Source: an uncultured Rickettsiales bacterium
GTDB lineage: Bacteria; Pseudomonadota; Alphaproteobacteria; Rickettsiales; UBA998
Length of the DNA stretch: 30,102 nt
NCBI GenBank assembly: GCA_937982385.1
Contig: CALJMC010000024.1
Span: forward strand, 1 to 30,102
Direction of reading: 5' to 3'
Shown: in pieces, positions 3-14,867 of the stretch
How positions within the stretch are numbered: the first letter of the stretch is position 1
How the letters are laid out: each line of letters starts with the position of its first letter
The notes under the pieces: generated by a model
Told to the model about the DNA's origin: nothing
Database searches by the model: none
What the model saw: the letters and a program-made list of their open reading frames with translations, nothing else
Program-made: the position numbers and the translations under genes

Positions 3-1412
3 GTTGCACAAGAATCTCTCGGATGTTCAGTGGTGGAAGTGAAGCAAGATGCCAATGCACAGTGGCATGTGATGGCCGATAGCAGCTATAACCGTCGTAT
101 CACCGCGACCACACCCATAGACATTTCAGGGCCAGCGCGAGGGCATAAACGCATGCAAACCGCAGCTGACCCAAAAGCCGAAGAGATATTAGGAACCTTC
201 GCTAATTGCGCAGGTGGAACGACTCCGTGGGGCACGGTGCTTACCGCTGAGGAGAACTTCAACTATCACTTCCGCGGGCTGCACAAACGCCACCCAGAAT
301 ATGAAAATTATGAACGCCTCGGCATCCCCGAAGACCCTGAATATAATGCATGGTGGAAGGTCGATACGCGCTTTGATATCAACCAACATATCAATGAAGC
401 GAATCGCTTTGGCTGGATTGTTGAATATGACCCGTATGACCCATCCAAAAAGCCCGTAAAGCGTACGGCGCTTGGGCGCTTCAAACATGAATGCGCCAAC
501 ACAACTATTGCCCCTGACGGACGCGTGGTGGTCTATTCAGGCGATGATGAACGCTTTGAATATGTTTATCGTTTCGTGACGAAGAATGCCTGTGATCCGA
601 ATAATCGTGATGCGAATTGGGGACTGCTCGATGAAGGAACGCTGAGCGTTGCACGTTTTGATGATGACGGCACCGTGACATGGCTACCGCTCATTTTTGG
701 TGAGGGTAGTTTGACTGCTAATAATGGATTTACTTCTCAAGCAGATGTCATGATTGATGCGCGCAAAGCGGGTGATATTGTGGGTGCAACTCCGATGGAC
801 AGACCAGAAGATGTGGAGGTTAATCCGCACACCAAAGAGCTGTTTATTGCACTGACCAATAATAAAAAGCGCAGCACAGACCAGCGCGATGCTGCCAATC
901 CGCGCGAGAAGAATGTTTATGGGCATATCCTAAAACTCACCGCACCCGATGGCAACCATGCTGCTAAGCGTTTTGAATGGGAGATATTCCTTAAAGGTGG
1001 CAACCCGAAAGATCAGGGCGATGCTGCCTATTATGAGAATGAACCATCCAAGCATGGCTGGCTCGCAAACCCTGATAACGTGACCTTTGATAACAGCGGA
1101 AATCTATGGATATGCACCGACGGGCAAAGCAAATCAATTGGTAAGAATGATGGTATTTACGCGATTGCGCGCGAAGGAAAATATGCTGGCGTGCCGCGTT
1201 CCTTCATGACCGTGCCGCTTGGTGCAGAAGTCACAGGTCCTGCCTTCACCCCCGATGGCAGCACATTATTTGCCTCCATTCAGCACCCCGGAGAAGCAAG
1301 AGACGGCTCAACCTACGCCACCCCCTCCACCCGCTGGCCAGATTTCCGCGACGATATGCCTCCACGACCATCCGTGATTGCGATTACTAAAAAAGGTAGT
1401 TCAGTCGGTTAG
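3..1412 (+). CDS. phoX: PhoX/DUF839-family alkaline phosphatase, 5'-truncated by the window edge
   Basis: Frame is open from position 3. Motifs NCAGGxTPWGTxLTxEEN, LGRFKHE, YSGDD, MDRPEDVE, NPDN, CTDG, GAEVTGPAF and SIQHPGE are typical of PhoX. Confidence 0.88.
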   Translation, partial: VAQESLGCSVVEVKQDANAQWHVMADSSYNRRITATTPIDISGPARGHKRMQTAADPKAEEILGTFANCAGGTTPWGTVLTAEENFNYHFRGLHKRHPEYENYERLGIPEDPEYNAWWKVDTRFDINQHINEANRFGWIVEYDPYDPSKKPVKRTALGRFKHECANTTIAPDGRVVVYSGDDERFEYVYRFVTKNACDPNNRDANWGLLDEGTLSVARFDDDGTVTWLPLIFGEGSLTANNGFTSQADVMIDARKAGDIVGATPMDRPEDVEVNPHTKELFIALTNNKKRSTDQRDAANPREKNVYGHILKLTAPDGNHAAKRFEWEIFLKGGNPKDQGDAAYYENEPSKHGWLANPDNVTFDNSGNLWICTDGQSKSIGKNDGIYAIAREGKYAGVPRSFMTVPLGAEVTGPAFTPDGSTLFASIQHPGEARDGSTYATPSTRWPDFRDDMPPRPSVIAITKKGSSVG

Positions 1413-11360: not shown

Positions 11361-12128
11361 TTAATCCTGATGTGTACTAGGCATGATTTTGGTGGTGGTG
11401 CAATATATCGCAATGCTGGTAATGACGAGTGTACATACCAAGACGGGACCTGCCGGGAGATCTGTGATCATGGCAATATAGATGCCCAATAAGACAGATA
11501 AAGCACCGCACAGAAACGCATTCCTCAGGGGGTGTTGTGCCTTGACTGCCGCTAATGCTGGTAACATTAAGCTAGCGAATACGACATAGACGCCTACCAA
11601 CTGCACGGACGACGTAATGGCGAGCGCGAAGAGCATATAAAAACCTATGCCGCTTCGTAGGGTGGGCTTCCAGAACCATAATGTTAGGATGAGTGCGTAG
11701 ATGGGCATATGTGTTCCTACATCCTGCCATGTGATAAAGAGCATCTGGCCTGAGAGCAAATGTTGAATCTCTTCGCCGCCATGAGGGTGATCGGCTAGCA
11801 ATAAAATGGATAATGATGCCGCCAATATGAAACTGACACCAATAATTGCCTCTTGCTGCTCTGGTGCTGTTTTTTCAATTTTTCGAAAAAATAATGCAGC
11901 TAAAATGGCGCTGGTGAGTGCGACGCCCTGCAACATCCATGCGGTGGGCGCATGTAGAAATGTACTTGCTGCGACCAGCCCAAGCCCTGCAATTTGCGCT
12001 ACGGCTAAGTCAATGAAGATAATGCCACGCCTCAGCACCTCAATGCCAAGCGGGGCATGGGTAAGCGCAATCATGAGCCCAGCAACTAAGGCTGGTGCTA
12101 CAATCGTCATCATTTCACTACTTATCAT
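11361..12128 (-). CDS. Metal ABC transporter permease (ABC-3/ZnuB-like)
   Basis: LGIEVLRRGIIFIDLAVAQIAGLG, EQQEAIIG, multiple TM helices, GVYVVFASL, DLPAGPVLV. Overlaps the SBP stop. Confidence 0.88.
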   Translation of the reverse strand: MISSEMMTIVAPALVAGLMIALTHAPLGIEVLRRGIIFIDLAVAQIAGLGLVAASTFLHAPTAWMLQGVALTSAILAALFFRKIEKTAPEQQEAIIGVSFILAASLSILLLADHPHGGEEIQHLLSGQMLFITWQDVGTHMPIYALILTLWFWKPTLRSGIGFYMLFALAITSSVQLVGVYVVFASLMLPALAAVKAQHPLRNAFLCGALSVLLGIYIAMITDLPAGPVLVCTLVITSIAIYCTTTKIMPSTHQD

Positions 12129-13029
12129 CGACAGCTCCTTTTAAGAGGCTAATGGACTGATTAAACAGCGCAAACAAATCTCCACTCTTTGCATCGCCAT
12201 CAATCGTGTATGGCAGTACTAAAGCGGGTGTTTTGGTCTTGCCAGAAAGCCACTCGCTGGCATCATCAGGCTCATAGGCTGTGCGTAAAATTGCATTGGC
12301 AGGTGTCGCGTTAAGTTGTTGAAGTAGTTTTCCCAAATGTGACGCTGTAGGGGGAATACCTGGTTTTGGCTCTAAAGATGCTACGGCTTCCATGCCCAAC
12401 CAATCGAGCAAATAGCTGAGCGCACGGTGATGCACGACAATTTTTTTGCCTTTCAGGCTTTGTGCTTGTGTTTCCCACGTCGCTATCGCTTGCTGCCAAC
12501 GTGCAGTAAAATTTTGCAAATTGCTGTGATATAGTGCTGCGTTAGGCGCATCAATGGTTGCAAGTCGTTTGGTAAGTTCGTTCGCTACAAGCACTATATT
12601 ATGCGGATTAAGATGTACGTGCGGGTTTCCCTCTGGGTGAACATCTCCCATGCTGCGGTCTATTGTGACGGGCGTTTCCAATATAGGTACAAATTCTGAG
12701 GCCATCAGATAGCCAGCAGCCCCGGGCTGCACGTTCGCCCCTGCTTTTTGCAGCAAGAGTGGCAGCCAACCAGCCTCAAGCCCCGCGCCAGAACATAGCA
12801 AGAGGTCAGCATGGCGCGCTTTAGCAATCAAGCTTGGGCGAGCACGAATATGGTGAGGGTCTTGCTTGGCGTGAGTGGCTGCAAACGCTTTCACCGTATC
12901 GCCGCCAATTTCTTCTGCGAGCGCTGCCCATTCAGGTTCGCATGCAAAAATATTCACTTTTGCTTGTGCCATGAATGGGGCTGCACTGAGCAACCCCACC
13001 ACGATTATACTAAGGAATTGTTTCATCAA
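12118..13029 (-). CDS. Metal ABC transporter substrate-binding protein (TroA/ZnuA cluster A-I)
   Basis: Signal peptide, QDPHHIRARPS, GAGLEAGWLP, DVHPEGNPH, LEPKPGIPP. Confidence 0.9.
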   Translation of the reverse strand: MMKQFLSIIVVGLLSAAPFMAQAKVNIFACEPEWAALAEEIGGDTVKAFAATHAKQDPHHIRARPSLIAKARHADLLLCSGAGLEAGWLPLLLQKAGANVQPGAAGYLMASEFVPILETPVTIDRSMGDVHPEGNPHVHLNPHNIVLVANELTKRLATIDAPNAALYHSNLQNFTARWQQAIATWETQAQSLKGKKIVVHHRALSYLLDWLGMEAVASLEPKPGIPPTASHLGKLLQQLNATPANAILRTAYEPDDASEWLSGKTKTPALVLPYTIDGDAKSGDLFALFNQSISLLKGAVDDK

Positions 13030-13133: not shown

Positions 13134-14495
13134 TTAAAATTTATGCGCACCATGAGCACCAAGACTCATGATATATTGCAAGATAACCTGATCATCATCC
13201 TGTGAGTTTGTTAATTCCTCGCGGTTATATTGCACACGCACACGGCTAAATTCGCTGTTTGTCCAGTCTAGCATGGCTGCATAAGCGATAGGGTCATGTC
13301 CCTCAGAATCAAGAGCGCTACCGATGAGTCCTGTCGGCGTATCGGGTGCATCAAGCTGACTATAGCGCGCACCTACGCGCCACTGAGGCGCAAATTTATA
13401 GGCTGCTTGGGCATACCACCCGCTAGAGGAGTCATCAAAATTGACGACACCCGTGCCAGCATCAGTATCTTCATAAGTACCGTCTTCATCGCGCCAGAAA
13501 TATTCCCCCTGAAGGATAACTTCTTGCTGACGTGCATTGCCTGTGGGCGCCCATGTGTAGCGCATGTCGGCAACATATAAATCGCTGTCGCCTGTGAATG
13601 TCACTGCATCTTCATTGCTTGCGCGACCACCCGAAGCTTCGCCTGAAAGCACAGAGGCACCTAAACGCCAGCTTTGGTTGCTACCGATATCATCGCCTAT
13701 GCGAGCAAACGCCGTCCATGCGCCAATGCCTTCGCCATCACTACCACCAAGCGGGAAATCATCGCCACGGAACAAGCCGCCCCCAATTTCTGCATAGATG
13801 TCTGTAGGCAGCACATAGGAAACCTCTGCACCATCATCGTTGAAAGCGCCATCTAGGAACACGCGATAAGGCAGTGGGCGATCTGCAAAATCATCCGCAT
13901 GGCTGTGATGTTCATTCAAATATCCTAGCGTCCAAAACGCACGACCTGCCTTGATGCTCATGCCACTCGGCAAGCCCATCCCGGGAAGTGTTTGAATGAA
14001 GGCTTCCTCAAGCTCGACCTCTGTTGAGCCTTCATGCTCCGCGATGGCTGCGGTGGTGCTACCGAAGAATTTATCATCCACATTGGCTGAAAAGTTCAAC
14101 TCAGTATGGTCTACGGCAAAGCCTTCACGGCCACGCTCACCTTCTTCTCCCACGCCGAAACCAGCGACATCGCCTTCATCGGAAGAGTAGTTGCGATATT
14201 GCCCATTAAGAATCACACCAATGGATGGATTGAAGCTGTTATCCTTTACCGCGCGTCGTGCTGTGGCCGGCGTTGCGGGTGCGGGTGCTGCTGCGGTTGC
14301 TGATGTTTTTGCTTGGGTGCTCTCCACCTTGTTGAGTTTAGATTCAAGCTCGACAATGCGTCCCTCATAGGCTTGTTTCATGTTTTGAATCTCTGCACGC
14401 AGTGCATCAATGTCATTGGGTGATGCAGCGAATGCAGAATTGCTAGATAACAGGCCGATAAATGCGACAGACGTCGCGAGTGCAGTTTTTAACAT
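13134..14495 (-). CDS. Outer-membrane beta-barrel protein associated with metal ABC loci, 453 aa
   Basis: Signal peptide, coiled coil, Ala/Pro linker, FNPSIGVILNG, ELEEAF, GYLNEHHSHADDFADRPL, EFSRVRVQY, terminal GAHGAHKF. Start ATG 14495 with AGGAGA SD. Confidence 0.8.
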   Translation of the reverse strand: MLKTALATSVAFIGLLSSNSAFAASPNDIDALRAEIQNMKQAYEGRIVELESKLNKVESTQAKTSATAAAPAPATPATARRAVKDNSFNPSIGVILNGQYRNYSSDEGDVAGFGVGEEGERGREGFAVDHTELNFSANVDDKFFGSTTAAIAEHEGSTEVELEEAFIQTLPGMGLPSGMSIKAGRAFWTLGYLNEHHSHADDFADRPLPYRVFLDGAFNDDGAEVSYVLPTDIYAEIGGGLFRGDDFPLGGSDGEGIGAWTAFARIGDDIGSNQSWRLGASVLSGEASGGRASNEDAVTFTGDSDLYVADMRYTWAPTGNARQQEVILQGEYFWRDEDGTYEDTDAGTGVVNFDDSSSGWYAQAAYKFAPQWRVGARYSQLDAPDTPTGLIGSALDSEGHDPIAYAAMLDWTNSEFSRVRVQYNREELTNSQDDDQVILQYIMSLGAHGAHKF

Positions 14496-14502
14496 AAGTG
14501 TA

Positions 14503-14590
14503 TCTCCTAAATACGATATGGGATCGCGCTTGCGAAAATCACAAGGCGACATATAAAAATAATGATAAGTTAGTTTGGTAGCTTAGGAGA
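14503..14590 (-). promoter_or_regulatory. SD/anti-SD pairing between the leader 3' end and the barrel-gene RBS
   Basis: mRNA TCTCCTAA (14590-14583) is the exact complement of TTAGGAGA (14510-14503). An inner hairpin TCGC-CTTGTGA-ttt-TCGCAAG-C-GCGA lies at about 14524-14549. Confidence 0.7.
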
Positions 14591-14867
14591 AAATAGGGGG
14601 CGCACGCGGCGCAGATACACGATAATGTTCCGACACTATTAATGTCAGTGCTGGCAAAACAGCTTTGAAAGCATAATGTTCTGGATGCTCAACTGTTGGC
14701 GCTTCATCACCATCGCTATATTTTACGTTTTCATGATGCAGATACACATCGCAGAGCCGATCATTATGCTCATGTTCCTCAAAGCCAAACTCCGCCATAT
14801 GCAGAGAGGAAAACGCCTGCATAGCGAGAAAACTAAGGATTAAGAATATGCTTAATGTTCTGTTCAT
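14583..14867 (-). CDS. His-rich DUF2946/DUF2607-like leader peptide with C-terminal RAPP arrest motif, 94 aa
   Basis: N-terminal hydrophobic signal/anchor, HEHNDRLCDVYLHH, C-terminal SAPRAPPIFS. Directly upstream of the metal-uptake genes. Confidence 0.8.
   Translation of the reverse strand: MNRTLSIFLILSFLAMQAFSSLHMAEFGFEEHEHNDRLCDVYLHHENVKYSDGDEAPTVEHPEHYAFKAVLPALTLIVSEHYRVSAPRAPPIFS

Follow-up and report, generated by a model that had tools for sequence, protein, structure and literature searches.

In bacteria, the control of zinc uptake is generally ascribed almost wholly to the repressor Zur. For copper, control of downstream genes through an arrested leader peptide is a principle already published in the form of CruR and CutF. 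RAPP peptides, CruR included, arrest the ribosome when the first proline codon occupies the P site and the second one the A site, and this arrest is robust and resistant to EF-P; it has been demonstrated in vitro for CruR, and RAPP-encoding upstream open reading frames before metal genes have been noted previously (PMC12992588). Here we describe a leader gene of related design in a stretch of 30,102 nucleotides (nt), hereafter the window, from contig CALJMC010000024.1 of an uncultured alphaproteobacterium, whose 1.55 Mb metagenome-assembled genome (MAG) is 83% complete and whose relatives are labelled ‘Rickettsiales bacterium’ or ‘Micavibrio’. The leader ends in RAPP-IFS-stop and precedes an outer-membrane barrel gene, and the codons following its Pro-Pro are complementary to the Shine-Dalgarno (SD) region of that gene. 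We consider it likely that the two form a stall-operated switch, in which a ribosome arrested at RAPP would open the helix and let the barrel gene be translated.

The segment TCTCCTAA (14590..14583), which begins 4 nt past the last proline codon of the leader, matches the reverse complement of TTAGGAGA (14510..14503) without a mismatch; the latter lies downstream, with 72 nt between the two. TTAGGAGA is the SD region of the barrel gene (ATG at 14495), and the spacer between leader and barrel measures 87 nt. In the minimum-energy fold of the RNA from 14615 to 14480, UCUCCUAAG.UAC pairs with GUAUUUAGGAGA around an inner hairpin (-29.6 kcal/mol, z = -2.99, 0/200 shuffles as stable). A preliminary description of this DNA had proposed the helix, the 8-bp complement, the 72-nt gap and the 4-nt offset after the last proline, as well as a second hairpin that shortens the loop; all of these are confirmed here, the second hairpin being recovered as the inner one at 14550..14523. 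GC-rich hairpins judged by eye to be comparable are found at five related loci (L003, L021, L022, L023 and L054) and are absent where the spacer is 39-47 nt long. No Rfam family matches the leader-barrel spacer, and no intrinsic terminator was found in it. In the window alone, 2.9% of shuffles reach a complement of at least 8 nt with the 22 nt preceding the start codon; the significance of the match therefore rests on its conservation across loci.

This conservation was assessed over 42 loci, comprising 30 leader loci and 12 more distant ones found through the barrel. For the 30-locus test, the stretch that starts directly behind Pro-Pro and ends 6 nt beyond the stop was paired against the 25 nt before the downstream start. 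In 35 of the 42 related loci, the codons that follow Pro-Pro directly are paired with the downstream gene's SD, and the more distant set behaves likewise (10/12). The mean duplex energy is -11.1 kcal/mol within loci versus -6.7 between loci, and 0/10,000 permutations reach the observed mean. In half of the leader loci (15/30) the leader tail outranks every other candidate partner of the SD region, and unconstrained minimum-energy folds contain at least five (usually 9-15) tail-SD pairs in 27/30, over spacers of 39-218 nt. Several compensatory variants of the helix are seen (UGUCCUAA/UUAGGACG, GUUCUUUCCU/AGGAAAGAAC, UCUCUUAA/UUAAGAGA, ACCUCUUUUC/GAAAAGAGGU and UUUCUUAUCUAA/UUAGAUAAGAAA). Even the stop codon covaries with the SD flank, TAA/TTA being replaced by TGA/TCA, so that a TGA stop goes with TCAGG instead of TTAGG (L054, L058). 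Compared with all synonymous tails, the real codons fall within the top 8% (median) for SD pairing. Among 8 close loci, 92% of the cells are paired and 3/8 pairs have changed on both sides, which 2/500 shuffles do as well. MAFFT and RNAalifold gave no structure for 18 spacers of unequal length, because the helix strands are out of register, but did give one for the subset of 8. Judged from these comparisons, the tail-SD complementarity is not a matter of chance.

Counting from the first base of the P-site proline codon (+1 = 14600), an unbiased scan for the partner of the SD, run from -60 to 30 nt past the stop, places the start of the best partner at +4..+15 in 22/26 loci. The helix edge is the same for tails of three residues (stop at +16, median edge +10) and of five (stop at +22, edges +6..+12), and the helix is therefore placed relative to Pro-Pro: irrespective of tail length, it begins some 10 nt past the first nucleotide of the P-site codon. 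The bases that mask GGAG fall where the mRNA entry channel of a stalled ribosome is known to lie. The geometry, as read from the sequences, thus points to a ribosome that is stalled rather than terminating. Covariation of the two strands in homologous loci, offered in the preliminary description as a check, is accordingly seen as conserved pairing with compensatory changes, anchored to the stall site.

The leader reading frame (14867..14583 (-)) encodes 94 amino acids (aa), with the signal-peptide-like N-terminus MNRTLSIFLILSFLAMQAFS followed by SLHMAEFGFEEHEHNDRLCDVYLHH and, at the far end, SAPRAPPIFS-stop; the segment HEHNDRLCDVYLHH is contained in it. The arginine of RAPP is R88 and the two prolines are residues 90-91. 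The cysteine motif reads C39-D-V-Y42 (CxxY), so the CXXC of DUF2946 and CruR is absent, while the 48 residues between C39 and R88 reproduce the CruR spacing. The preliminary description was right on each of these points of anatomy, namely the 94-aa length, the export signal, the His-rich site, the RAPP-IFS-stop end, and a single cysteine with a histidine cluster in place of CxxC. In the public annotation the gene starts at Met16 (79 aa), omits the stretch 14823..14867 (-) and thereby loses its signal peptide; judged from the homologues, Met1 is the true start. No SD precedes either Met1 or Met16 here, and the same holds for the nine homologues whose upstream sequence was inspected. Cleavage is predicted after A-F-S (residue 20), which would leave the mature N-terminus S-L-H (residues 21-23, 14799..14807 (-)), that is X-X-His with the invariant His23 found in all homologues. 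An X-X-His N-terminus follows the pattern of Cu(II)/Ni(II)-binding motifs, and it may be an alternative to a zinc site made of three histidines and one cysteine (His3Cys).

Among 400 genomes of the order, 35 gave leader homologues in six-frame searches, and a profile search of 1.84 billion representatives gave 722 clusters (50% identity) at E<=1e-3, 179 of them at E<=1e-10. In an 88-sequence alignment H23, H32, H34, C39 and P91 are invariant and Q17, R88, A89 and P90 nearly so, whereas the middle 45 residues, between the metal site and RAPP, vary freely. RAPP is present in 134/149 representatives and RGPP in 5/149, mostly 3 residues from the stop and 2-6 in all but two; 27 of the 31 genomic homologues carry one or the other motif 2-6 residues from the stop, and exactly three residues follow PP in 86/145 relatives. 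HxH lies 3-6 residues N-terminal of the cysteine in 141/149 representatives. The distance from this cysteine to RAPP has a modal value of 48, in 98/145 representatives and 31/48 genomic leaders; CxxY occurs in 69 relatives and CxxC in 22, the CxxC variants giving spacings of 48/45. The codons of RAPP differ synonymously between relatives (CGT/CGC/AGA, GCN, CCN), and selection therefore acts on the peptide.

A word-based protein search with the leader matched only the leader itself. The PF11162 (DUF2946) model, with a cut-off of 23.7 bits, leaves P0001 unmatched even at E<=10 and matches 4/88 relatives weakly (best E = 2.6e-4), and the PF10795 (DUF2607) model leaves P0001 unmatched and matches 3/88 relatives weakly. 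At the level of profiles the relation becomes visible: hhalign aligns the 88-sequence profile with 13 canonical alphaproteobacterial DUF2946 sequences over 87 columns and the full length (93.8%, E = 1.8e-7), with the cysteine and RAPP in register, and with DUF2607 over 84 columns (90.9%, E = 1.1e-6). An alignment of 10 sequences was set aside for this purpose, as it matched through the signal peptide alone and the 88-sequence profile was needed. On this profile evidence the leader family is a divergent relative of DUF2946 and equally close to DUF2607, the family of ZrgD; for P0001, DUF2607 is a related family and not one to which it belongs. The kinship with DUF2946 leaders that had been proposed from the sequence thus holds in the profile comparison and in the shared CruR spacing, but it is distant, and Pfam is blank for P0001.

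The same genome also encodes, on contig 23 (L072, 1489..1875 (-)), a canonical DUF2946 leader with CPIC ... RAPPVFS (40.7 bits), the only match in a six-frame PF11162 search of the genome. It precedes a His-rich outer-membrane protein of 339 aa (336..1355 (-), weak PF13557 match), and its tail TTTTTCCT is able to pair with AGGAAAAA at the SD of this downstream gene. The pair is a second leader-barrel module, probably of the copper type, and the window leader is thus not the organism's lone sensor but a second, divergent one. Upstream of the leader genes, the motif CTTGACAAGTGTGGTATAATG is found 35-50 nt before the ATG in L003, L004, L009, L021-L023, L025, L029, L030, L033 and L034, and not in the window. 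It combines a TTGACA-like hexamer with a TATAAT box just 7 nt away and contains the palindrome CTTGNCAAG; from its sequence it may be a promoter with an operator. Another palindrome, the AT-rich and Fur/Zur-box-like TTATAACAAATGTTATAA, lies in the 266-nt leader-barrel spacer of L069 (a Rhodospirillales MAG), and similar words (ATAATATAACAT) occur upstream of the leaders in L008 and L043.

The leader heads an operon whose barrel gene is followed by a ZnuA-family binding protein and a ZnuB-like membrane protein of the ATP-binding cassette (ABC) type (Table 1). No ATPase gene follows P0004, and the next gene is pepA on the other strand. Of the Zn/Mn/Ni/Co-type ABC locus that had been proposed here, the binding protein and the permease are therefore present and the ATPase gene is not. 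The same gene order without an ATPase is seen in genomes G010, G029, G153 and G050 and on chromosome 2 of Vibrio campbellii (loci L044-L047 and L089), where barrel, binding protein and membrane protein follow each other in the same way (identities in Table 1). By gene order and homology, the operon is a homologue of the omr-znuAII-znuBII cassette. The barrel is the target of the leader in 24/30 loci, the other targets being a TonB receptor, a P-type ATPase module, a His-rich protein with an alkaline phosphatase, and an ABC ATPase. The barrel family has more than 4,400 matches and no Pfam model. Sequence searches of the PDB gave no match for the barrel, and for the binding protein the best matches (E ~1e-10) mix Zn, Mn and Fe proteins, so that no metal could be assigned from them.

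Table 1. Features of the leader-barrel locus in window coordinates, with the basis or remarks for each.
Feature	Coordinates	Strand	Basis or remarks
Anti-SD strand UCUCCUAAG(C)UAC	14578..14590	(-)	last 2.7 codons, stop and 5 nt beyond; +11..+23 from first P-site nucleotide
SD strand GUAUUUAGGAGA of barrel gene	14503..14514	(-)	SD core GGAG 14507..14504
Inner hairpin GUCGCCUUGUGAUUUUCGCAAGCGCGAU	14523..14550	(-)	minimum-energy fold; brings both helix strands together
Second complementary segment GUGUAUCU	14613..14620	(-)	pairs with AGAUACAC at 14505..14498 (SD end and spacer); window-specific
Leader gene P0001, 94 codons and stop	14583..14867	(-)	signal peptide, His/Cys site, variable middle, RAPP-IFS-stop
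Probable Sec signal peptide, residues 1-20	14808..14867	(-)	sequence by eye and conserved alignment pattern
Candidate metal site H23...H32-x-H34...C39 (HMAEFGFEEHEHNDRLC)	14751..14801	(-)	conservation in alignments
RAPP codons CGT GCG CCC CCT	14595..14606	(-)	RAPP in 134/149 representatives
Expected stall	CCC 14600..14598 in P site, CCT 14597..14595 in A site	(-)	CruR, ApdA and ApdP toeprints (PMC12992588)
Leader stop codon	14585..14583	(-)	
Outer-membrane barrel P0002, 453 aa, Omr-like	13134..14495	(-)	N-terminal coiled coil, ends GAHGAHKF; 36% identity to Vibrio campbellii barrel
ZnuA-family binding protein P0003, ZnuAII-like	12118..13029	(-)	PF01297, E = 7e-39; 43% identity to Vibrio campbellii neighbour
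ABC-3 (ZnuB-like) membrane protein P0004	11361..12128	(-)	38% identity to Vibrio campbellii neighbour

In V. parahaemolyticus, zinc limitation induces omr-znuAII-znuBII by a factor of 283 to 1033 (PMC9817125), and ZnuAII is required for growth with the chelator TPEN (PMC3794297). As the operon matches this zinc-starvation-induced cassette, zinc is the likeliest signal of the leader, and the His3Cys site would fit zinc; going by these sequence relations, we favour zinc by a slight degree. Copper or nickel is possible as the sensed metal, because cleavage after A-F-S would leave an X-X-His N-terminus. The suggestion that the leader is a non-copper version of the known regulators gains support from its context, that is, from an operon homologous to the Vibrio zinc cluster and a leader akin to ZrgD. 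A single Fur-family gene was found in the 83%-complete genome, and it lacks paired CxxC motifs, which is a weak negative for Zur.

Considering sequence and analogy together, the leader would be an exported sensor peptide of the CruR/CutF kind that controls translation of the operon. While the tail is free of ribosomes, its last codons, the stop and the next bases would pair with the SD region of the barrel gene, which would then be poorly translated. A ribosome on the leader would arrest with the first proline codon of RAPP in the P site, as expected by analogy with the RAPP of CruR, ApdA and ApdP, and its entry channel would hold about +11 to +15, the CUCC that masks GGAG. With the helix blocked in this manner, other ribosomes could initiate on the barrel gene and probably on the whole operon. 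How long the arrest lasts would be governed by the exported, N-terminal portion of the nascent chain, in which H23, H32, H34 and C39 are held at a fixed place 48 residues before RAPP. Most likely, the binding of zinc or folding at the translocon would pull the chain and end the arrest, so that low zinc would leave the uptake genes on and ample zinc would turn them off, with the logic of CruR. For the release of the stall by metal, drawn from analogy, we see an even chance; which metal acts, in which direction the locus responds and what part export plays are inferred.

A second perfect 8-nt complement, GTGTATCT/AGATACAC, lies on the 5' side of the stall site (14613..14620 with 14498..14505 (-)), with GUGUAUCU at -20..-13 relative to the first P-site nucleotide. 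In a longer fold, GUGUAUCU/AGAUACAC and the tail helix together clamp the entire ribosome-binding site. A conserved second clamp upstream of RAPP was considered and rejected, with 3/30 loci at p<0.05, and the one in the window may be a lineage-specific reinforcement or chance.

Several points weigh against the stall-operated switch or against parts of it. In constrained folds with a ribosome footprint of -12..+15 kept open, AGGAG is 0.71 paired versus 0.99 in the free RNA; the predicted opening in the window is therefore only partial and less complete than in the relatives, and by this model the second clamp could hold part of the ribosome-binding site closed even during the stall. Pairing is weak in 7/42 loci (L032, L038, L043, L017 and L057 among them), and Pfam and NCBIfam give no match for P0001 even at E<=10. 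Export itself should already pull on the nascent chain, which complicates a force that metal is supposed to modulate. The metal assignment leans on the homology of the cargo genes, and a search of the window with a Zur-box consensus alone gave no match at up to 3 mismatches, which is weak evidence. Finally, CruR, the closest characterised relative, works via Rho and can dispense with its signal peptide, whereas SD masking apparently operates here.

The CruR precedent (PMC9426467) raises the alternative of transcriptional control, in which the main effect of the stalled ribosome would be to keep Rho, or a pause or terminator, from acting in the spacer, with SD masking playing a lesser part. Directly behind the leader stop, a stretch of 31 nt (14581..14551 (-)) contains 6 C and no G and is rut-like, hence a possible Rho loading site; the structured inner hairpin is conserved in many loci, and an untranslated barrel message would attract Rho polarity anyway. 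What is conserved and covaries, however, is the pairing with the SD itself, and it is kept at spacers of just 39-47 nt without a hairpin (L007, L035 and L059); together with the lack of an intrinsic terminator in the spacer, this leaves Rho control as an unlikely main mechanism. The helix and RAPP could also be real with no metal sensing attached, coupling the barrel to leader translation or to Sec capacity in the manner of SecM and ApdP while a transcription factor handles the metal. RAPP leaders of Sec/YidC genes do monitor export and not ligands (PMC12992588), the targets are exported proteins, and the Vibrio cassette is under Zur and has no leader (PMC9817125). Against this stand three histidines and one cysteine that are invariant at a fixed 48-residue distance to RAPP while the rest of the mature part varies, targets that are metal-uptake genes and not Sec components, and a Fur-family gene, the only one found in the incomplete genome, without paired CxxC motifs; we regard this alternative as quite unlikely.

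Even less probable, in our view, is a functional role for the leader product itself, as a metal-binding peptide of the periplasm or a chaperone serving the uptake system, with its C-terminus conserved for that role. The His/Cys site and the X-X-His N-terminus after cleavage, which follows Cu/Ni-binding N-terminal motifs, would suit such a peptide, and ZrgD has been considered a potential accessory protein; yet zrgD knockouts show no growth phenotype (PMC9820375), the middle 45 residues are unconserved, the tail codons are chosen for RNA pairing, and conservation is highest at RAPP, which is otherwise kept out of proteomes (PMC12992588). That a pyrimidine-rich tail should match a purine-rich SD by chance, which the shuffles of the window taken alone would allow at the frequency given above, is extremely improbable in the face of the within-locus matches that beat all 10,000 cross-locus permutations, the covarying stop codon and the positive synonymous-codon test.

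As for the stall-operated switch and its sensor, four elements are new: a subfamily with an H-x8-HxH-x4-C site to which Pfam is blind, the association of this leader family with an ATPase-less zinc cassette, an anti-SD that is encoded within the final codons at a constant distance from the stall, and the link of the family to ZrgD. Zinc is unmentioned in the papers on CruR, CutF and RAPP upstream reading frames, and a literature search found none pairing ‘arrest peptide’ with zinc. We put forward tentatively, with somewhat less than even confidence, that the leader is the first zinc-sensing nascent-chain arrest peptide, in which an exported His3Cys site reads periplasmic zinc while translation is under way and a RAPP arrest sets the translation of an ATPase-less zinc importer, in alphaproteobacteria of small genome size in which no Zur turned up, and with ZrgD, the first gene of the Vibrio zrg operon, as the same device. 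If this were true, a translational nascent-chain sensor of extracytoplasmic zinc would form a second, faster layer of control, the CruR/CutF principle would extend from copper to zinc, and several hundred unannotated or miscalled small genes, possibly including ZrgD, would gain a function. The fixed geometry, with the metal site 48 residues from RAPP and the anti-SD about 10 nt after the P-site codon, would offer a simple search rule for such switches as well as a clean system for force-release experiments.

With CruR (Bp2923, Bordetella pertussis, DUF2946/PF11162) the locus shares a small exported gene upstream that heads a metal-uptake operon, a metal-ligand cysteine 48 residues before RAPP (C90-R139 in CruR; 45 from the second cysteine) (PMC9426467), the C-terminal RAPP, and the likely logic by which metal ends the stall and shuts uptake. 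It differs in that a CxxY and H-x8-HxH site replaces CxxC, the segment of about 30 residues with ICTA of canonical DUF2946 members is missing, the target is an Omr-type barrel with ZnuAII/BII where CruR has a TonB receptor, and the metal is probably zinc and not copper. ApdA and ApdP are likewise small secreted proteins with a C-terminal RAPP, encoded upstream of the regulated gene (PMC12992588), but they monitor Sec/YidC function and have no metal site. The omr-znuAII-znuBII clusters of V. parahaemolyticus, V. vulnificus and V. campbellii consist of the same three genes in the same order without an ATPase (PMC9817125, PMC3794297), while the Vibrio barrel has no coiled coil and the cluster is controlled by Zur and has no RAPP leader.

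CutF of the cutF-cutO pair in Rhodobacter capsulatus also has a signal peptide along with a metal motif and, at its C-terminus, a proline-rich stall site (PMC9973294; bioRxiv 10.1101/2025.02.05.636593), and there too an RNA structure shields the next SD and is opened by the stalled ribosome, a structure that in our case is found in silico and conserved. The leader falls within the definition of CutF-like proteins (PMC9973294), with fewer than 150 aa, PP in the last 15 residues, a signal peptide (by eye) and a same-strand gene within 1000 nt. However, the tail of CutF is PPP and EF-P-dependent, and its copper-induced stall turns on a detoxifying enzyme, whereas the leader described here has a RAPP tail, an anti-SD inside the last codons and stop, and an importer as target; the response is therefore probably opposite in sign to that of CutF.

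ZrgD (DUF2607/PF10795) belongs to the Zur-regulated zrg zinc-uptake operon of Vibrio and is listed in the literature as of unknown function, not as a leader (PMC9820375, PMC9817125). In four genomes of one Vibrio-like genus (L091-L094, leader at about 1450-1770) the DUF2607 protein ends in RAPPKLS, RSPPAS, RSPPVKMT or RSPPVKNT, and its gene directly precedes those of ZrgA (PF10986) and an ABC ATPase. The differences from the window leader are a Cys-RAPP spacing of about 44 and a tail-SD pairing that is clear in 1/4 loci examined (L091, 8 bp at +4..+11). Both are about 100 aa long with an N-terminal hydrophobic segment, both carry an H...HxHH-C type of site and R(A/S)PP 2-4 residues from the stop, and zrgD lies directly upstream of the zinc-uptake gene zrgA; judged by its sequence, ZrgD resembles a leader of the arrest type for this zinc operon.

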